A stretch of DNA of 64,000 nucleotides from an uncultured Acidobacteriota bacterium (GCA_963741135.1 CAVUHC010000002.1:255413-319412); one strand, 5' to 3'; shown: positions 7,794 to 41,915, counted from the stretch's first letter. The notes: generated by a model not told the origin, from the letters alone. Made by a program: numbers and translations.

Positions 7794-8432
7794 GTGCCCA
7801 GCGCTGTCGTCGTACGCGAGCTCAGCGAGGCGGATCTTCAGTCTGCCGTCGGAATCGTCGCGCGCGGGATGCGAGACAACCCGCTCCACATCGCGGCACT
7901 CGGCGCCGATGCGGAGGTTCGCGGCAATCGATTGATCCGTATGTTCGGCGTGGCGCTGCCGTTGATCTTCTCCAAGGGCGTTCTGCTTGGCGGGTTTCAG
8001 GACGGCACGCTCGTCGGAATTGCCGGCATGGTGCCGCCGGGGAAATGCCAGCCATCGATGAAGGAGAGGATCACCCTCGTCCCGCGCATATTCCCTGCGG
8101 TCGGCGGGGGCGCGTTCGCGCGCGTCGGGCGATGGATGGGGACGTGGGCGCAACACGACCCCGCGGAGCCCCATTGGCACCTCGGACCGGTTGCAGTCGA
8201 GGCGCATTTGCAGCGGCGAGGCATCGGGAGCCTGCTCATGAGCGAGTCTTGCGCGCGTCTGGATCGCGCGCGCGCCGTCGGCTATCTCGAAACGGACAAA
8301 CCGACGAGCGTGACCTTTTACGAACGGTTTGGATTCGAGACGATCGGCTCGGGGCCCGTGCTGAACACACCGAACTGGTTCATGCGGCGGGCTTGCTTGG
8401 AAAATCCCATTGGAGTTTACCTTACTGACTGA
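7794..8432 (+). CDS. GNAT family N-acetyltransferase
   Basis: Acetyl-CoA binding motif region LQRRGIGSLLM and C-terminal YERFGFE. Confidence 0.75.
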   Translation: MPSAVVVRELSEADLQSAVGIVARGMRDNPLHIAALGADAEVRGNRLIRMFGVALPLIFSKGVLLGGFQDGTLVGIAGMVPPGKCQPSMKERITLVPRIFPAVGGGAFARVGRWMGTWAQHDPAEPHWHLGPVAVEAHLQRRGIGSLLMSESCARLDRARAVGYLETDKPTSVTFYERFGFETIGSGPVLNTPNWFMRRACLENPIGVYLTD

Positions 8433-11400
8433 GAGGCGCCAGTCGAGGTGCTGTGGCACCTGCCCCGGACCCGGGCATCACCGTGAGCTCGGTGGTCTCA
8501 CCGTTCTTCACTTCAACCGATTGCCTTCGCTCACCGAAGGCCGCATCCTTGACGACCACTTCACGCGTGCCGATCGCAACGGGCATGGCGTCGAGCGGCG
8601 CGACGCCGGCACGGTCCCCTTCAATCCACACTTCCGCTCCCGGCGTTGTCGTCACGTGCACCCTGCCTGACGGCAGCGCAAGGGTGTGGGCCGTGACCTG
8701 CCCGGGACGAATCGTCAGCGCGACCGTCGATCGGAAGTTGAATCGCTCGCTGACAAACTCGATCTTGTGACTGCCGGCGTTGAGCAGGAGCTGCCCGTCC
8801 TCGGTGGTACCGATACGGCGGCCATCGGCGAACAGGTCCATCGGGATTCGCGAGAACGCCAGAAGAAAGCCGCCTACGGCTGCGCCCGGCGCCTGAGCAC
8901 CGGGGCCGGGGGTGGCGGGACGATTCGTGGTCGCTGAGCTCTGGCGACGCGCCGCGCGCTCCGCCGTGACCAGTGCGTTCTTGACGGCCGGCGCCGCGGC
9001 AACGGCAGCATCGGCGGCCTTCGTCGCCGCCTCGCCCGCGGTGTCAGCCCACTTGGAGGAGGTCTTCACGGTGGATGAAAACATGCCGGGGAGCCAGATC
9101 ACACCGGCGCCGATCACGATCGCGAGGACGATCGCACCAGCGACCAGATCCCACCGGACGCGATCCCACTGGATGTGCGGAATACGCGACACGAAGGATG
9201 GGTCAGCCGGCTGCTCCAATGGCTCTGTGTGGACCTGATCCGGCCCACTCGCCTGCCGGCTCTCCGCCTCGGCGCGGAGCATGGCCACTTCAGCGGCGAG
9301 TCGTAGGTTTGCCTGGGCGCGAATGCGCTCGGTTTCAGACGCGAGTGCCTTTTCCGCGGCGGCTCGAGCGGTCTCCGCCGCCTCGATCCGGATCCGATTC
9401 ACGTCGAGCGCGGCCTGCTGGTGCGCGTGGCGGGCCTGTTCTGCCTCACCACGAGCGCTGGCAAGCTCCGCCTCGAGGCGGGCCTCGTTTTCGGACTGTG
9501 CCCGGGATCCGCGCGCCAGCTGCACATCGCTCTCGGCGCGCGCGCGCGCGACCGCAGACTTGATCTGTGTGTCGGCGTCAGCCTTGACGCGCGCAATCTC
9601 GGCAGCGAGAACTCGCGCCGCTTGCGCTTCAGCCGCAAGGCGCGCTTCTGTGACCGCCGCCGCGCGCGCCGCGTCGGCTTCGGCTTTGACCCGCGCGATC
9701 TCCGCTTCGCGCGCATCCCCCGCCTCCAACTCGGCCGTCAGGAGCGCTTCTTCAATGGCCCCTGCCCGCGCAGCCTCGGCCTCGGTCTTCATCCGCGCGA
9801 TCTTGTTTTCTGCGTCTCGGGCCCGCGCGACGGCGGCTTCCGCCGCCTTCTGTGCCTCTTTGACCGCGGCGGTGCGCAACGCGGCGGCTTCGGTGCGCGC
9901 GAGGGCAACCGCGGCCTGAACCTGCGCCTCGGTGTCCGCCTTGACGCGCGCAATCTCGGCTTCGAACACGCGCCTCGCATCCCCTTCAGCGGAAAGGCGC
10001 GCTTCCTCGACTGCCGCCGCCCGAACCGCATCGGTTTCGGCGTGCGTGCGTGCGACCGCGGCCTCGACTTGCACCTCGGTGTCCGCGTTGACACGCGCAA
10101 TCTCGGTTTCAAGAATGCGCTTCGCTTTTCCTTCAGCGGCAAGGCGCGCTTCGTCGACCGCCGCCGCGCGAACCGCGTCGGCCTCGGCGTGCGCGTGTGT
10201 GACCGCGGCCTGGACCTGCACGTCGGCCTCGGCCTTGACGCGCGCAATCTCGGCTTCGAGAACGCGCATCGCTTCCGTTTCAACGACGCGGCGCGCGTCG
10301 TCGACTGCCGCCGCGCGAACCGCGTCGGCCTCGGCGTGCGCGCGCGTGACCGCGGCCTGGACCTGCACGTCGGCCTCGGCCTTGACGCGCGCAATCTCGG
10401 CTTCGAGAACGCGCATCGCTTCCGTTTCAGCGTCACGGCGCGCGTCGTCGACTGCCGCCGCGCGAACGGCGTCAGCCTCGGCGTGCGCGCGTGCGACCGC
10501 GGCCTGGACCTGCACGTCGGCCTCGGCCTTGACGCGCGCAATCTCGGCTTCGAGAACGCTCATCGCTTCCGTTTCACCGGAAAGGCGCGCTTCGTCGACT
10601 GCCGCTGCGCGAACCACGTCGGCCTCGGCGTGCGCGCGTGCGACCGAGGCCTGGACCCGCAGGTCGGCGTCGGCCTTGACGCGCGCAATCTCGGACTCGA
10701 GAACGCGCGTCGCTTTTCTTTCAGCGGCAAGGCGCGCTTCGTCGACTGCCGCCGCGCGAACCGCGTCGGCCTCAGCGTGCGCGTGTGCGACGGCGGCCTG
10801 GACCCGCACGTCGGCGTCGGCCCTGACGCGCGCAATCTCGGACTCGAGAACGCGCGTCGCTTCCGTTTCGGCGACACGGCGCGCGTCGTCGACTGCCGCC
10901 GCGCGAACCGCGTCAGCCTCGGCGTGCGCGCGTGCGAGCGCGGCCTGAACCCGCACGTCGGCGTCGGCCTTGACGCGCGTCATCTCGGAATCGAGAACGC
11001 GCATCGCTTCCGTTTCACCGGCAAGGCGCGCCTCTTCGACCGCCACCCCACGCGCCGCGTCGGCTTCTGCTCTGACCCGCGCGATCTCCATGTCGCGCGA
11101 ACGCATCGCTTCCGACTCGGTCGTCGTGCGCGCTTCCTCGACGGCCGCCGCCCGCGCAGCACCGGCCTCGGCCTTGATCCGCACGATCGCTGCTTCTGCT
11201 TCTCGTGCCCGCGCTTCGGCGGCTTCCGCCGCCCTCTGCGCCTCTTCGACCGCGGCGGTGAGTGATGCGTCGGCTTCGGTGCGCGCGCGCGCCAGCCGTT
11301 CGTCTCCCTCCCGCTCGGCCTGCGCTTGCGTCTCTCCAAGCTTCGCGGTCAGCGCCTCCTCCGCCTCGGTTCGCACGCGTGCCACTTCCGATGCGAGCTG

Positions 11401-12144
11401 CTGCTCCGCCTCTTTCCTTACCTGTTCGAGCTCCGCAGCCAGCGCCTCGCGTGCCGCGGCTTCCGCTCCGGCGCGCGCATCGCTCACCGCCGACTCGCGC
11501 TGCGTCGCCGCCTCACTTTCGATCCGCGCGAGGTCCTGCTTGCGCTGCTCCTCGGCCTCGTCGGCCATGCGTGCAAGCTCGCGCGCCCGTTGGAGTGCGC
11601 CTTCTGCCTGTACCCGCTCGAGCTCGGTCTTCAGTCGGAATTCGACCTCGGCCTCGATCAGCGAGACATCGGCCGAACGCATACCGGCCTCGACGGGGGC
11701 AACCGGGGGGACTTCCGCGACCCGCTTTGCCCGCGCGTTCTCTGCCGCGGTGAGCAACGTGTCGACCGTCCTTTCGAACGACGCCACCTCGGTGCTGGTG
11801 TTTTCGGCACCCTTCCTTCGAAACGGATTCGGAAAGCCGGATTTCTGTGGTGGTACTGCGTTCGCCAGCGACGGGATGTCGAGCGTGCGGACCTGTGCCG
11901 AGTCCGCCAGAGAGCGCAAATGCGTGCCGATCTTGACCCGCTGGTCCTGTGGGACCTCTCGGCCGAACAGGACAAGGTCAGGCACGCGCTGATTCATCGC
12001 CACGATCGCCGCATAAGCGGACGTGACGATGACGAGCTCGGCGCCGAGTTTCGTGTGAACGACGGAACCGAGCGGATCCGCGTGGGAGGAATCCGGCTCG
12101 ATCGCCAGCACTAGGTTCATATTGCGGAACATTGAGCGGGGCAA
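8422..12144 (-). CDS. 1240-aa membrane protein: receiver-like N-terminus, about 900-aa Ala/Glu/Arg coiled coil with 49-aa tandem repeats, one TM helix, C-terminal PEGA-like domains
   Basis: Intact ORF. The N-terminus resembles a CheY fold but has PDLVLFG where the phospho-acceptor D is expected. TM helix VAGAIVLAIVIGAGVIWLPGMF. The C-terminus has two beta-rich PEGA-like modules. Confidence 0.7.
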   Translation of the reverse strand: MPRSMFRNMNLVLAIEPDSSHADPLGSVVHTKLGAELVIVTSAYAAIVAMNQRVPDLVLFGREVPQDQRVKIGTHLRSLADSAQVRTLDIPSLANAVPPQKSGFPNPFRRKGAENTSTEVASFERTVDTLLTAAENARAKRVAEVPPVAPVEAGMRSADVSLIEAEVEFRLKTELERVQAEGALQRARELARMADEAEEQRKQDLARIESEAATQRESAVSDARAGAEAAAREALAAELEQVRKEAEQQLASEVARVRTEAEEALTAKLGETQAQAEREGDERLARARTEADASLTAAVEEAQRAAEAAEARAREAEAAIVRIKAEAGAARAAAVEEARTTTESEAMRSRDMEIARVRAEADAARGVAVEEARLAGETEAMRVLDSEMTRVKADADVRVQAALARAHAEADAVRAAAVDDARRVAETEATRVLESEIARVRADADVRVQAAVAHAHAEADAVRAAAVDEARLAAERKATRVLESEIARVKADADLRVQASVARAHAEADVVRAAAVDEARLSGETEAMSVLEAEIARVKAEADVQVQAAVARAHAEADAVRAAAVDDARRDAETEAMRVLEAEIARVKAEADVQVQAAVTRAHAEADAVRAAAVDDARRVVETEAMRVLEAEIARVKAEADVQVQAAVTHAHAEADAVRAAAVDEARLAAEGKAKRILETEIARVNADTEVQVEAAVARTHAETDAVRAAAVEEARLSAEGDARRVFEAEIARVKADTEAQVQAAVALARTEAAALRTAAVKEAQKAAEAAVARARDAENKIARMKTEAEAARAGAIEEALLTAELEAGDAREAEIARVKAEADAARAAAVTEARLAAEAQAARVLAAEIARVKADADTQIKSAVARARAESDVQLARGSRAQSENEARLEAELASARGEAEQARHAHQQAALDVNRIRIEAAETARAAAEKALASETERIRAQANLRLAAEVAMLRAEAESRQASGPDQVHTEPLEQPADPSFVSRIPHIQWDRVRWDLVAGAIVLAIVIGAGVIWLPGMFSSTVKTSSKWADTAGEAATKAADAAVAAAPAVKNALVTAERAARRQSSATTNRPATPGPGAQAPGAAVGGFLLAFSRIPMDLFADGRRIGTTEDGQLLLNAGSHKIEFVSERFNFRSTVALTIRPGQVTAHTLALPSGRVHVTTTPGAEVWIEGDRAGVAPLDAMPVAIGTREVVVKDAAFGERRQSVEVKNGETTELTVMPGSGAGATAPRLAPLSQ
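9939..11115. repeat. 147-bp tandem repeat, at least 8 copies, inside the 1240-aa gene
   Basis: The CCTTGACGCGCGCAATCTCGG anchor (a few copies carry 1-2 substitutions) recurs at 9939, 10086, 10233, 10380, 10527, 10674, 10821 and 10968, exactly 147 nt apart. Adjacent central copies look roughly 90-95% identical by eye. Degenerate copies flank the array. Confidence 0.95.
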
Positions 12145-12269
12145 TTGACGTGCCGCCTGGTTCTGCGGCGAAACAGCACAGTAGACGGTTTTTGCTGACG
12201 ATTTCCGTACGCATATGACGGATCTGAAACAGCGGATCCGCTTCGGACGTCCGGCTGAAGGTCCCGGTG

Positions 12270-12350
12270 TAGGTTCGGCTGCCCGCCTACGCGCTTTGCG
12301 CTACGGCGAGGTCTCGCCGAAGCCTCGGCGAAGGCGGAAAGCCGGACGCT
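12270..12350. repeat. REP-like family B element (CCGCCTTCGCC / GCTACGGCG core), copy i
   Basis: Shares GGCTGCCCGCCT(A/C)CGCGCTT...CTTCGGCGAAGGCGGAAAGC with 17197-17290. Lies just downstream of alaX. Confidence 0.75.
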
Positions 12351-13632
12351 ACCGCGGAGATGCTTCAAGCAGCTCCCGTGCTGCCCGGTGTATCTCAGCC
12401 GCGTCTCCGGTCAGACCGCCTCCTTGTGCAAGGTCTGGCTTCCCGCCGCCCCGGCCTCCGAATCGCTCGGTAAGCGCACGCAGGATGGCGTTGGCGTCGA
12501 CCGGGACGTCAGCCGACCTGGCGATGACGACTGCGAACGGCGACGTCGTCGAGAACAACGCAGCCGCCACGCAACGACCGGCGGTGATCGCGGACGCAAT
12601 CGCTTTGAGGCCGTTCGCATCCCAGCCTTCGAGCGCTTCGACAACAACGTGAACACCGGCAGGTCCATCCGCCTTCGGGCTTCGAGCCTGGTCGGACAAG
12701 GAAGGACCTGCCAAGAGCCGAGCCGCTTCGTGGCCCGCAAGCGTCTCCTGAAATCTCTTGATCGTCTTGCGGAGATCCCTGGCGTCCACGTGCAGCCGTT
12801 CAATGGCCGCTGGGAGTTCCTGAGGCAAGACCGAGAGGGCCCGCACGCTGCCGGCCACCGATTCTCGAAGCGTTCTGAACAGGCGAAGCGCGCGGCCGCC
12901 GCACGCAAACGTGATGCGCGTGCCGCCCTTGAACTTCTCCGCGCCGGCGACGGCGATCATCCCGATCGCTCCCGTCCGCGCCACGTGCGTGCCGCCGCAC
13001 GCCGAGAGGTCAAAGCCGGTCACCTCGATCAGCCGCAGAATGCCCTCGCGCGCCGGCTCCTTCCGGAGCTGTAGGGGCGGGTCTGAGGGGCCGTGCCTGG
13101 CGGGGTCGACAAACCGGATCGACACCTCGCGGTTCTCCCACACGACGCGGTTCGCTTCGTCTTCGGCGCGCGAGATCTGATCCGAGGATGTCTCGCGCAG
13201 CAGGTCGACCGTCGCCGTGTCTGCGCCCATGTGGAAGCTCATGGTCCGGTTGTCGAAGAGGCGATCGAACGCAGCAGACAACAGGTGCTGTCCCGTGTGC
13301 TGCTGCATGTGATCGAAGCGCCGGTTCCAATCGATTTCTCCGCTCACGGTGGTGCCTTGGCCGATTGGCGCCGACAGCACGTGCACCACGTCGTCGTCAC
13401 CGTCCACGGTCTCGACGACATCGATGGCGCCATGTTGCCTGGCGGGCACGAAGGGTCCGCCGAGCTCGTGAGGAAGGAGGTGTCCGGTGTCGAACGGCTG
13501 ACCACCAGACGAGGGATAGAACGCGGTCCGATCGAGCAGGGCTGCGGGGCGGCCATCGTGCTCGAACGCCTTCGTCACGACCGCCTCGAAACGGCGGCAG
13601 TACGGGTCGGTGTAATAGATGCGGGCGGTCAC
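12349..13632 (-). CDS. alaX: Alanyl-tRNA editing protein AlaX-L (AlaRS editing domain plus DHHA1)
   Basis: HxxxH (HTGQHLLS), CGGTHV, and C-terminal GGRGGGKPDLAQGGG. The GTG start overlaps the kinase stop (GTGA). Confidence 0.85.
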   Translation of the reverse strand: MTARIYYTDPYCRRFEAVVTKAFEHDGRPAALLDRTAFYPSSGGQPFDTGHLLPHELGGPFVPARQHGAIDVVETVDGDDDVVHVLSAPIGQGTTVSGEIDWNRRFDHMQQHTGQHLLSAAFDRLFDNRTMSFHMGADTATVDLLRETSSDQISRAEDEANRVVWENREVSIRFVDPARHGPSDPPLQLRKEPAREGILRLIEVTGFDLSACGGTHVARTGAIGMIAVAGAEKFKGGTRITFACGGRALRLFRTLRESVAGSVRALSVLPQELPAAIERLHVDARDLRKTIKRFQETLAGHEAARLLAGPSLSDQARSPKADGPAGVHVVVEALEGWDANGLKAIASAITAGRCVAAALFSTTSPFAVVIARSADVPVDANAILRALTERFGGRGGGKPDLAQGGGLTGDAAEIHRAARELLEASPR

Positions 13633-14696
13633 GCCGCTTCGGCGGAGGCTGCTGGGAGTTCGAAGTAGAAGATGGCGCCGCCGGCCGGTGCGTTCCGATA
13701 GCCGATGCGCCCGCCCAGCGAATCGATGATTCCGTAGCTGATCGACAGCCCCAGGCCGGTGCCCTGGCCGACTGGTTTCGTCGTGAAGAACGGCTGGAAC
13801 AACTTGGCCTCGTTGTCGGGCGGGAGGCCGGGTCCGGTGTCCTCGACCTCGAGCAGCACGCGGCCGCTGTCGTCGCGCGAGCGGATCGTGATGCGCCCCG
13901 GCAGCCGGCCGGACATTATGATCGATTGCTCGGCATTGATGACAAAGTTCAAAAGCACCTGTTGCAGCTCGGTGAGCACCGCCGAGACGAACTGCGTCGA
14001 CCGGTTTTCGACCCGCAGCTCGATGTCTTCGGACTCGAGGCGCCGCTGCCGCAGTTCCGCGACTGACACGATGACGTCGGTGAGGCTCACGGGAGCGGCC
14101 TCACCCGGCTGCTGCCGGGCGAACATCGCGAGGTTCCGGATGATGTTGCAGGCGCGCGCGCTTTCCTTCTGAATCAGTCTCAGGTCGGTCTTGACCGAGT
14201 CGGGCACGTCGCCCTGCATCTGCAGCAGCTCCGCGAACCCCAGAATCGCCTGAAGCGGATTGTTGATCTCGTGCGCGACGCCGGAGACAAGCTGTCCGAC
14301 CGCGGCGAGACGCTCCTGGCGAATGACCTGACGCTGCAGGGACTGGAGCTCTTCGCGGATCCGCCGCTCTTCGCCCATCTGTTCGTCGATCTCCGTGCGG
14401 GTCTTGTTGAAGCGCTGCAACATGGAATCGAACGCATCCTGCAGTTTGGCGAACTCCCGCGTCGGCATCGGCTTCCGCTCGACGGGCCTGAAGTCTCCGG
14501 ACGCGATGCGCTGTGCGGCGACCTCGAGATGCCTGAGCGAGGTGGCCAGCCGGCGAGACAGGACGAACGCGACGACGAGCCATCCGGCAAGGCCGAGCGC
14601 CAGGATCGCGACCGTGCGTGCCCAGAACGTGGTCACCCCCGACCCCGCGGCGAGGAGGAAAGGCACGATAAGCAGGCCGATCGCAACTGCGAGCAT
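13629..14696 (-). CDS. Sensor histidine kinase (2 TM, HAMP, HisKA, HATPase_c)
   Basis: H-box SGVAHEINNPL, plus N, G1 and G2 boxes (DTGPGL, GTGLGLS). The start at MLAVAIG was chosen to avoid overlapping queC; the longest ORF extends to 14807. Confidence 0.85.
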   Translation of the reverse strand: MLAVAIGLLIVPFLLAAGSGVTTFWARTVAILALGLAGWLVVAFVLSRRLATSLRHLEVAAQRIASGDFRPVERKPMPTREFAKLQDAFDSMLQRFNKTRTEIDEQMGEERRIREELQSLQRQVIRQERLAAVGQLVSGVAHEINNPLQAILGFAELLQMQGDVPDSVKTDLRLIQKESARACNIIRNLAMFARQQPGEAAPVSLTDVIVSVAELRQRRLESEDIELRVENRSTQFVSAVLTELQQVLLNFVINAEQSIIMSGRLPGRITIRSRDDSGRVLLEVEDTGPGLPPDNEAKLFQPFFTTKPVGQGTGLGLSISYGIIDSLGGRIGYRNAPAGGAIFYFELPAASAEAA

Positions 14697-14743
14697 GCGC
14701 TGAAAGGGGGGTAACGACCAGAAAGACCGCACTGTCCTAACCT

Positions 14744-15415
14744 TTATCGGCCAAACAGAGGGTCGGCCACACCGGCCTGCGCAAACCCGGCCGCACGGAG
14801 TGCGCAACTGTCACAATGGCCGCATGGATGTCCCTCGGGACCCGGATCGTAGCAGCTGTGGGTAATCCCGTAGTCCAGCCCCAAGTCTCGGCCCCTCCGG
14901 ATGATATCCGCCTTGGTAAACGTCTGCAGGGGGGCGTGGATGCGAAATGTCGCGCCCTGCACGCCCTGAGCGGTCGCCAGCGACGCCAGCCGCTCGAACG
15001 CGGCGATGTATTCGGGGCGGCAATCGGGATATCCGGAATAATCGAGCGCGTTGACGCCAATGAAGATATCGCGCGCGCCGAGCACCTCGGCCCATCCGAG
15101 CGCGAGCGACAGAAACACGGTGTTGCGTGCGGGAACGTAGGTGGAAGGGATTTCGTCGAGGTCGATCGGCCGATCCTTGGGCACGGGCGCATCGCTGGTG
15201 AGGGACGAGCCACCGAACGCAGAGAGATCCACGTCCAGCTCGATGTGCCTGGCCACCCCGAGCGCGCGCGCGACAGCGCGCGCGGCGTCGAGCTCGTGGG
15301 CATGGCGCTGACCGTATCGCACCGTCAACGCAAAGAGCCTGAAGCCCTCCGCCTGCGCCATTGCCGCCGCGGTATAGGAGTCAAGGCCGCCGCTCAACAA
15401 CACCACCGCAGGCAT
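14744..15415 (-). CDS. queC: 7-cyano-7-deazaguanine synthase
   Basis: SGGLDS PP-loop and Zn site [20 protein letters not shown] at 15415. Confidence 0.95.
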
Positions 15416-41841: not shown

Positions 41842-41915
41842 TGCCGGAGGGCAGACTCGAACTGCCGACCCCGCGCTTATGAGACGCGTGCTCTAACCGG
41901 CTGAGCTACTCCGGC
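41839..41915 (-). tRNA. tRNA with CAU anticodon (elongator Met-like; Ile2/lysidine type not excluded), CCA encoded
   Basis: Hand-folded cloverleaf: acceptor GCCGGAG/CUCCGGC, D arm GCUC-AGCCGGUUA-GAGC, anticodon arm CGCGU-CUCAUAA-GCGCG, variable loop GGGUC, T arm GGCAG-UUCGAGU-CUGCC, A73, CCA. G1-C72 excludes an initiator. Confidence 0.9.

Follow-up and report, generated by a model that had tools for sequence, protein, structure and literature searches.

A predicted bitopic protein of Vicinamibacterales with a truncated pseudo-receiver, a long length-variable stalk and a PEGA anchor: a candidate envelope-anchored docking scaffold

FimV and HubP are large bitopic polar hubs, with an envelope-binding periplasmic domain and acidic cytoplasmic repeats that vary between species, which organise pili and other polar machines. 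PodJ of Caulobacter comprises a coiled-coil cytoplasmic part, a transmembrane (TM) segment and a periplasmic part with peptidoglycan (PG)-binding and tetratricopeptide repeat (TPR) domains; a polar scaffold, it recruits the Tad protein CpaE and the histidine kinase PleC and is needed for Tad assembly (PMC12637624). FrzS of Myxococcus xanthus joins a pseudo-receiver to a coiled coil and activates type IV pili in its role of polar beacon (PMC1974792, PMC12632262), its alpha4-beta5-alpha5 face being essential for function (PMC1974792). We describe here a gene from a 64,000-nucleotide stretch of DNA of an uncultured Acidobacteriota bacterium (GCA_963741135.1 CAVUHC010000002.1:255413-319412, hereafter the window), the product of which is, as judged from its sequence, a bitopic inner-membrane protein of a Vicinamibacterales family. 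We tentatively propose, as quite possible by analogy, that this protein is an envelope-anchored, length-tunable docking scaffold working like PodJ or FrzS. At its C-terminus, the PEGA pair would hold on to some component of the envelope; the stalk, reaching into the cytoplasm, would pair into a stiff rod that could measure ~120 nm at most, and recruitment of a cytoplasmic partner by the head would need no phosphorylation. This partner would probably be the co-directional histidine kinase (HK) in the subfamily of the window and the Tad pilus machinery, e.g. TadZ/CpaE, in a second subfamily whose genes invariably adjoin the flp promoter region, and the reach of the stalk would evolve through the gain or loss of whole repeat units. 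The proposal is founded on an unphosphorylatable and conserved head, a long, proline-free and length-variable stalk, a periplasmic anchor, and the linkage to Tad or histidine kinase genes. The overall layout given in the initial annotation, with a receiver-like head devoid of the acceptor Asp, a helical region, a TM helix and two beta modules, holds. The features are as follows, with residue numbers counted throughout from the ATG at 12120:

8422..12120, minus strand: gene including the stop, 1232 aa from ATG 12120
11866..12120, minus strand: predicted truncated pseudo-receiver head, aa 1-85 (AF2, Foldseek, family profile, dN/dS)
11749..11865, minus strand: disordered basic linker, aa 86-105, and family-conserved helix, aa 106-124 (AF2, alignment)
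9256..11694, minus strand: cytoplasmic stalk, aa 143-955 (composition, hydrophobic spectrum)
10996..11097, minus strand: degenerate 34-aa unit 5' of the array, orthologous across relatives (protein register)
9820..10995, minus strand: tandem array of eight 147-bp (49-aa) units, aa 376-767 (TRF, protein register, identity matrix)
9508..9711, minus strand: two degenerate 34-aa units 3' of the array, aa 804-871 (protein register)
9094..9147, minus strand: single TM helix LVAGAIVLAIVIGAGVIW, aa 992-1009 (hydropathy scan)
8872..9084, minus strand: periplasmic low-complexity linker, Ala/Pro/Thr-rich, aa 1013-1083 (sequence, dN/dS)
8683..8871, minus strand: beta-sandwich module 1, aa 1084-1146, PEGA-like by fold only (AF2)
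8479..8670, minus strand: beta-sandwich module 2, a PEGA domain, aa 1151-1214 (Pfam PF08308, AF2)
8431..8448, minus strand: conserved C-terminal motif PRLAPL (recurrence in relatives)

In common with FrzS and AglZ, the protein has an N-terminal receiver-like domain without the acceptor Asp, of a phosphorylation-independent type, followed by a long helical domain, and the pilus tie of FrzS has a counterpart in the subfamily that is locked to a type IVc (Tad) operon. However, FrzS is soluble and has a full (beta-alpha)5 fold, whereas the protein here stops after beta4 and carries a TM helix and periplasmic PEGA; its stalk is three times longer (813 vs 258 aa) and non-heptad, and the sequence similarity is marginal (E 0.035). 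As in PodJ, a coiled-coil-rich cytoplasmic part, one TM helix and a periplasmic part are arranged in a bitopic protein, N-in / C-out as inferred here, and the flanking of a Tad operon or a histidine kinase by the family loci recalls the Tad-protein and kinase clients of PodJ. The two proteins nevertheless show no sequence relationship, and PodJ has PG-binding and TPR domains instead of PEGA and is without a receiver-like head or an exact tandem array. FimV and HubP are likewise bitopic, with a long acidic cytoplasmic region and a variable repeat number, but their N-terminal periplasmic LysM corresponds to the opposite orientation, their repeats are largely non-helical, and they possess neither a pseudo-receiver nor PEGA. 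In its overall layout the protein may be likened to the hubs PodJ, FimV and HubP, its periplasmic domain being PEGA and not LysM or PG_binding. On sequence grounds, we assign the protein to neither the PodJ nor the FrzS family. Its components (pseudo-receiver, non-heptad coiled coil, PEGA, bitopic scaffold) are of known kinds. The novelty lies in their combination, in the extreme length and polymorphism of the stalk and in the link to Tad; no description of a PEGA anchor combined with a truncated pseudo-receiver and a very long non-heptad stalk was found in the literature searched.

The head is the part of the protein that is most strongly conserved at the codon level. In the AlphaFold2 (AF2) model, with a pLDDT of 80.6, the succession beta1-alpha1-beta2-alpha2-beta3-alpha3-beta4 spans residues 3-81, and after beta4 come a disordered basic linker (pLDDT <50 at residues 90-95) and the helix 106-124, which bears the family motif DPxxFAxxV..L with a nearly invariant F115. 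Pfam Response_reg (PF00072) gave no match to the window protein, either at full length (E<=1) or with the N-terminal 125 aa (E<=10), and it is weakly matched by 27 of 43 relatives (best 2e-4). A profile of 43 family N-termini retrieved solved receivers exclusively from the PDB sequences (MtrA at 9e-5, YycF, LuxO, and FrzS at 0.035), and a Foldseek search of the PDB with the head returned receivers and pseudo-receivers only (DivK, Spo0F, FrzS, CikA PsR), the tightest over ~81 columns at 2.4-2.9 Å. In the profile alignment, the family sequence PDLVLlg lies opposite PDLVLLD, which sets Gly53 at the phospho-acceptor position (PDLVLFG in the window protein); this agrees with the CheY-like N-terminus without acceptor Asp initially annotated, a domain that is moreover truncated after beta4. 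The position is occupied by G, S, N or T in nearly all relatives, and by Asp only in the distant P0060-62. E8 and D10, at the end of beta1, hardly vary in the family and might correspond to the acidic pair of receivers, and after beta4 the window protein reads D-I-P and many relatives T-I-P, where receivers have a conserved Thr/Ser. The Lys that follows beta5 is missing because there is no beta5, and the head does not form the complete (beta-alpha)5 receiver fold with its alpha4-beta5-alpha5 face. The model thus portrays the head as a truncated (beta1-beta4) pseudo-receiver, which is predicted to be refractory to phosphorylation since it has no acceptor Asp, beta5 or Lys. PMC12632262 defines a pseudo-receiver as a computationally recognisable receiver without the residues for phosphotransfer; by this wording the head qualifies, its profile and fold matches being to receivers only and the acceptor Asp and Lys missing.

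P0060-P0063, distant relatives of ~900-960 aa, keep the Asp (VPDLVLVD), end in two hydrophobic segments and have no PEGA on record. The acceptor Asp of P0060-62 suggests that the family descends from a true receiver, and from their sequences P0060-P0063 may represent the ancestral, phosphorylatable form. NCBIfam gave no match to the protein, nor did PDB sequence searches with the whole protein or with three repeat units, and none of the curated families (Pfam, NCBIfam) covers the head or the stalk. Against a set of 5.8 billion proteins, the N-terminal profile matched mainly short gene calls and fragments with uninformative names.

The stalk is composed of Ala (31%), Glu (15%), Arg (12%) and Val (10%), with zero Pro over 813 residues and a net charge of -44. 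As one continuous helix it would measure 813 aa x 0.15 nm = ~122 nm, so that the extension of ~100 nm first put forward is arithmetically right under that assumption, given that no Pro interrupts it; the ~900-residue coiled coil from which it started is to be revised to a helical region of ~813 aa (aa 143-955) with no heptad signal and a period of ~3.75. The hydrophobic spectrum of the whole stalk indeed peaks at 3.75 (15/4 type), and the helical harmonic populated in the array is 49/13 = 3.77 and not 49/14 = 3.5. The idea of seven heptads per 49-aa unit was ruled out on these grounds, with no power at 3.5. Any exact tandem repeat forces spectral peaks at unit/integer values; whole-turn unit lengths were therefore no longer taken as evidence, and the non-repeat stalk was checked separately. 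In the pre-array stalk (aa 143-341), the power at 3.65-3.85 is significant, being reached by 0/500 shuffles, and is accompanied by the 3.0 harmonic of a 15-residue pattern. The same period recurs in the family: among ~70 relatives, ~55 peak at 3.67-3.81 irrespective of the length of their repeat unit, the mean spectrum peaks at 3.74 with 3.5 at background, and most of the remaining relatives have their maximum around 3.0, where the second harmonic of the 15-residue pattern falls. The check on homologues proposed at the outset, of conserved periodicity against low-complexity noise, is therefore answered in favour of a 15-residue-type period kept across these relatives.

On a wheel drawn at 3.77, one 60-degree sector has an LIVMF content of 0.62 and the adjoining sector is Ala-rich (0.64). 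The array and the pre-array stalk exhibit the periodicity of right-handed coiled coils (3.67-3.75, with small and large hydrophobic core residues), and the 3.5 period of the canonical left-handed heptad coiled coil was found neither in the window protein nor in the ~70 relatives. Right-handed hendecad/quindecad coiled coils rich in Ala, Leu, Glu and Arg are described in the b2 and E-G peripheral stalks of rotary ATPases (PMC6131620). By analogy, the periodicity and composition of the stalk are of the kind found in such coiled coils, its pairing and handedness being predictions. The likeness extends to the Ala/Glu/Arg/Leu-Val-rich composition and to the hendecad/quindecad period (3.67-3.81 here), and the ATPase stalks are stiff, membrane-anchored struts (PMC6131620). 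Unlike the stalk here, which could reach up to ~120 nm, they measure ~14-17 nm, and no homology was detected in the PDB sequence searches.

Within the stalk, TRF reports one array (9880-11064, period 147, 8.1 copies, 0% indels, 87% matches) and the protein register resolves eight units, in accordance with the 147-nt period and the eight 49-aa units originally annotated. The bounds given for them (9939-11115) are displaced by ~120 nt toward the 5' end of the gene and run into a 34-aa variant. Each 49-aa unit makes 13 turns at 3.77 residues/turn, is built of 15+15+19 aa, and equals the 34-aa variant with one extra 15-aa sub-repeat (AEADVQVQAAVARAH / AEADAVRAAAVDDAR). The degenerate copies anticipated on both sides are these 34-aa units, at 10996-11097 and 9508-9711, and the 3' ones are separated from the array by an 85-aa gap. 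To call the units near-identical overstates their likeness: DNA identity between units is 66-95% (85-95% for the central six), the longest exact run between units in register is 62 bp, and the codon differences among units amount to 416 non-synonymous vs 177 synonymous.

The copy number differs among close relatives. In the clade of the window, defined by 91-94% protein identity of the N-terminal domain, the complete proteins have 1134, 1134, 1181, 1183, 1230 and 1232 aa, which corresponds to 6, 7 or 8 units. Across this clade the outer units are positionally orthologous, and the central ones are homogenised and not one-to-one, the pattern expected of unequal crossing-over and homogenisation. 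The suspicion of recent expansion or gene conversion with copy-number variation is consequently borne out by lengths that differ by multiples of 49 aa, and the survey of homologues for repeat-number variation, now run, adds to the 6-8 units of the clade the different units, of 92 and 96 aa, that sister lineages have expanded. As for the possible assembly collapse also raised, the worry was legitimate. In L017, a close species-representative genome (92-94% DNA identity) assembled from short reads, a 100-N gap and a frame break fall exactly within the array, and the one-unit difference between L021 and L022 involves an apparently chimeric unit, such as unequal crossing-over or assembly collapse could yield; some short-read metagenome counts could thus reflect collapse. 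In the window, the units are mutually distinct enough (exact runs <=62 bp) to be resolvable in the assembly, and eight units are independently present in contig L022.

At the other end of the protein, a single hydrophobic segment, aa 992-1009, substantiates the one TM helix proposed, and a TM segment lies at the equivalent place in most relatives, about a dozen having none that reaches the threshold. Inspection of the sequence revealed no N-terminal signal peptide. PEGA domains are typically extracytoplasmic. Together with the absence of a signal peptide and the cytoplasmic type of the N-terminal fold, this points to an N-in / C-out topology. The AF2 model of the C-terminal pair has a pLDDT of 90.9 overall and of about 97 in the modules, each of which is seven-stranded. 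Of the two PEGA-like domains announced, both all-beta modules are thus recovered, and Pfam recognises PEGA in the second (PF08308, E 7e-11, 42.3 bits for a gathering cut-off of 20.8; matched in 32/32 relatives), the first being PEGA-like by fold only, with weak Pfam signals for DUF7407 and CarboxypepD_reg. The identity of the tandem beta module is 40-57% across most subfamilies and 28-39% in the most distant ones, above that of the head. The motif PRLAPL is C-terminal in groups A and C, defined below, and in some members of other groups.

The module is more widespread than the head. In an exhaustive HMM search (E<=1e-30), it ends 1101 cluster representatives, and the pseudo-receiver head was present in only 25/137 of the top representatives examined, the others including a bona fide Ser/Thr kinase and 'F[RK]DGLGER' proteins. 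This occurrence on a kinase and on other heads suggests that bitopic proteins use it more generally as a periplasmic anchor or sensor. The protein here resembles the bitopic PEGA Ser/Thr kinases, of which one Pkinase+PEGA protein was verified, in its C-terminal TM segment and PEGA module(s), but the cytoplasmic part of those proteins is a kinase or an 'F[RK]DGLGER' head and not a pseudo-receiver with a giant stalk. The 'F[RK]DGLGER...' set (P0246, P0259, P0275, P0285, P0239, P0311, P0319) consists of bitopic proteins of 900-2200 aa that bear the same PEGA module, and its N-terminus has no Pfam match.

The family was delineated from 100 loci, classed by their flanking genes. Its members are 672-1589 aa long, are annotated in their sources as 'hypothetical protein' or 'CheY-like', and, where the source is named, all come from metagenome-assembled genomes of Vicinamibacterales / Acidobacteria subdivision 6. 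In 12 species-representative genomes there is exactly one locus each, although the N-terminal search pattern fits all groups, and this favours, from the sequences, one copy per genome with lineage-specific placement rather than paralogy of the subfamilies. The complete orthologues of group A, to which the window belongs, range from 672 to 1232 aa in conserved synteny, the short ones having only the 15-aa background periodicity, and three clades of this group have expanded different units, of 96 aa, 92 aa and 49 aa, the last in the clade of the window. In L028, L038 and L048, also of group A, the reading frame stops early (342, 165 and 329 aa) in otherwise syntenic contigs, which could reflect pseudogenes, frameshifts or misassembly of the GC-rich stalk. 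The ratio dN/dS was computed by region against three close relatives:

Head, aa 1-85: 0.08-0.15
Post-head linker and helix, aa 86-125: 0.6-1.6, relaxed
Non-repeat stalk: 0.23-0.34
TM segment and periplasmic linker: 0.46-0.67
PEGA pair: 0.19-0.31

The value for the non-repeat stalk argues that the stalk is a constrained sequence and not noise, and by these codon ratios head, stalk and anchor all appear to be under purifying selection.

The genes adjoining the window locus that bear on the proposed partner are the following:

12349..13632, minus strand: AlaX-like gene (tRNA_SAD/DHHA1), co-directional, upstream (Pfam)
13629..14807, minus strand: histidine kinase (TM-HAMP-HisKA-HATPase), co-directional (Pfam); overlaps the AlaX start by 4 bp

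The 40 loci of group A, one of them that of the window, conserve the order QueC, histidine kinase, AlaX-like gene and this gene, followed by convergent GNAT and PBP4 genes. The succession HK->(AlaX)->gene is co-directional in 27 of these 40 loci, those with a flank reaching the kinase, and in L009 and L029, where AlaX is absent, the kinase lies directly upstream of the gene by 222-236 nt. The kinase of the window clade has ~365-392 aa and is devoid of the dCache sensor domain carried by its 604-aa orthologue in L002, from which it can be surmised that the sensor domain was lost in this clade. Group B comprises 26 loci with proteins of 718-1177 aa, and in 26/26 the gene is divergent from a Tad/Flp pilus operon (Flp pilins, A24 peptidase, RcpC, secretin, TadZ, TadA, TadB/C), the nearest flp gene being on the opposite strand 690-990 bp upstream, while the downstream flank of the gene varies. 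Often immediately upstream of the group B gene, on the same strand, is a small open reading frame (ORF) of 69-88 aa with two hydrophobic helices and no Pfam match (L003 9692-9958, L006 9729-9992, L007 9741-9995, L008 9789-9998; also L005, L020 and L062-L066). Two of these loci also code for further multi-PEGA proteins at a distance of a few kb from the Tad-linked gene, at L003 15311-16288 (minus strand) and L006 16792-18933 (minus strand). The 9 loci of group C, whose proteins reach 1463 aa, are flanked by MtnA/TsaD on one side and nucleoside phosphorylases on the other, and 11 loci with proteins of up to 1589 aa are found in other contexts.

Several observations weigh against the docking scaffold proposed here. 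A tblastn search detected no Tad genes in the 64-kb window, so the pilus link is borrowed from the group B subfamily, and the histidine kinase synteny, seen within one order, may be merely inherited gene order. A comparison by hhalign of the head with the N-domain of TadZ, taken from the Tad-linked loci, gave no specific similarity. The head does not have the alpha4-beta5-alpha5 face that is essential to FrzS, and its docking surface must therefore differ from that of FrzS. The folds retrieved from the PDB by the PEGA pair are generic sandwiches of the transthyretin-like, carboxypeptidase-regulatory and S-layer types, and in the post-array stalk the ~3.75 period is not significant. Finally, the subfamilies could be displaced orthologues or else paralogues. 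In the literature searched, no paper combining 'PEGA domain' with Tad pili was found. A more specific version of the scaffold, which we regard as rather unlikely, would make the stalk a right-handed coiled-coil ruler, a rigid, membrane-planted rod of 45-150 nm according to lineage that would hold the phosphorylation-independent docking head at a defined cytoplasmic depth. Its length would be tuned over short evolutionary times (6-8 x 49 aa in one species-level clade), and the client so positioned or spaced would be a histidine-kinase complex in the lineage of the window and the basal body of the Tad pilus in another.

Other readings of the same architecture deserve to be considered. The protein might be a trans-envelope signalling adaptor for the adjacent kinase, in which PEGA would sense an envelope cue, the head would be a decoy or modulator of the kinase's DHp domain, and the length of the stalk would be incidental. 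The maintained co-directional HK->(AlaX)->gene order, with the kinase directly upstream where AlaX is absent, would fit this role, as would the lack of a cognate response regulator beside the kinase in the window and the presence of the same PEGA module on a Ser/Thr kinase, where a sensor role would apply; receiver-like folds are, moreover, the natural partners of HisKA domains. A signal is nevertheless hard to conceive through ~813 helical residues that vary almost two-fold in length among orthologues, subfamilies B and C have no adjacent kinase, and the head has neither the Asp nor the beta5 half, for which reasons we deem the adaptor unlikely. It can also be hypothesised, with lower probability, that the helical repeats form filaments or a cortical lattice, as a cytoskeleton-like polymer comparable to Scy, FilP or crescentin and tethered to the wall by the TM segment and PEGA. 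Long non-heptad repeats are known from coiled-coil proteins of the bacterial cytoskeleton (FilP/Scy), and the stalk is very long, proline-free, regularly periodic and, outside the array, under purifying selection. Its net charge of -44 and small hydrophobic stripe speak against lateral packing, however, and a length polymorphism between close relatives is unusual in lattice formers, which renders the polymer improbable.

Variation of repeat copy number and 15-residue periodicities are typical of surface fibrils, and since the copy number varies among close relatives here, an extracellular fibrillar adhesin must be weighed, with a stalk exposed in the manner of M proteins or YadA-type stalks and a copy number that reflects surface variation. 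The arrangement of the protein makes this very improbable: the signal peptide is missing, the N-terminal domain has a cytoplasmic receiver fold, and the sole TM segment comes after the stalk and is followed by PEGA, so that the export of 990 N-terminal residues without a signal would be required, which is implausible. We attach just as little credence to an artefact, that is, a misassembled array or copy number, or low-complexity noise in an ORF that is no real gene. The break of the L017 assembly inside the array (100 N, frame lost), the one-unit L021/L022 difference that collapse could mimic, and the premature stops in L028, L038 and L048 would all be consistent with it. It is contradicted by terminal domains that are conserved with dN/dS <1 over many independent contigs, by units that can be told apart (66-95%, <=62 bp exact), eight of them independently in L022, with orthologous array edges, and by a periodicity kept family-wide.

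With regard to the gene itself, the mechanical ORF of 1240 codons (8422..12144, minus strand) opens at a TTG at 12144. The ORF initially annotated thus stands, but not its length: all 63 first-round relatives and the later loci share the N-terminus M[SN]LVLAIEPD, which begins at codon 9 of the mechanical ORF, so that the ATG at 12120 is the likeliest start and the protein probably has 1232 aa and not 1240. The 3' end of the convergent GNAT acetyltransferase gene (7794..8432, plus strand) overlaps that of this gene by 11 nt (8422-8432). Antisense to the array there are long open frames of <=614 aa, e.g. 9421..11265 (plus strand); they were dismissed as genes and are considered by-products of GC-rich in-frame repeats, because conservation and dN/dS track the minus-strand frame. 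A scan of 8300-12450 for promoters and terminators gave nothing informative. At 12225-12360, around the intergenic space between the AlaX stop (12349) and the start of this gene (12120), a GC-rich imperfect palindrome can form a long hairpin (-66.9 kcal/mol, z = -3.0), which may be a terminator or a REP-like element; as a repeated intergenic element it was rejected, being single-copy within the window. In the close relative L017, a 100-N assembly gap lies at the position of this palindrome. When the window and three Tad-linked loci were compared with Rfam for structured RNAs and riboswitches, the sole match was an unrelated tRNA (window 41842-41915, minus strand).

The Vicinamibacterales, which rank with the most abundant bacteria of soil, are to our knowledge almost unstudied in cell biology. 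Should the stalk be only a flexible tether, the protein would be no more than a hypothetical membrane protein of the ordinary sort, in which a low-complexity segment has expanded. If, on the other hand, stalk length maps onto a cellular distance, it would represent a rare cytoplasmic molecular ruler tuned by repeats and an unusually long natural right-handed coiled coil. The syntenic orthologues of 672-1232 aa, with a copy number that shifts among close relatives, provide a natural experiment. If the proposed docking scaffold is true, the family would constitute the first candidate for an envelope-anchored organiser in Vicinamibacterales, tied in one large lineage to the Tad adhesion pilus.

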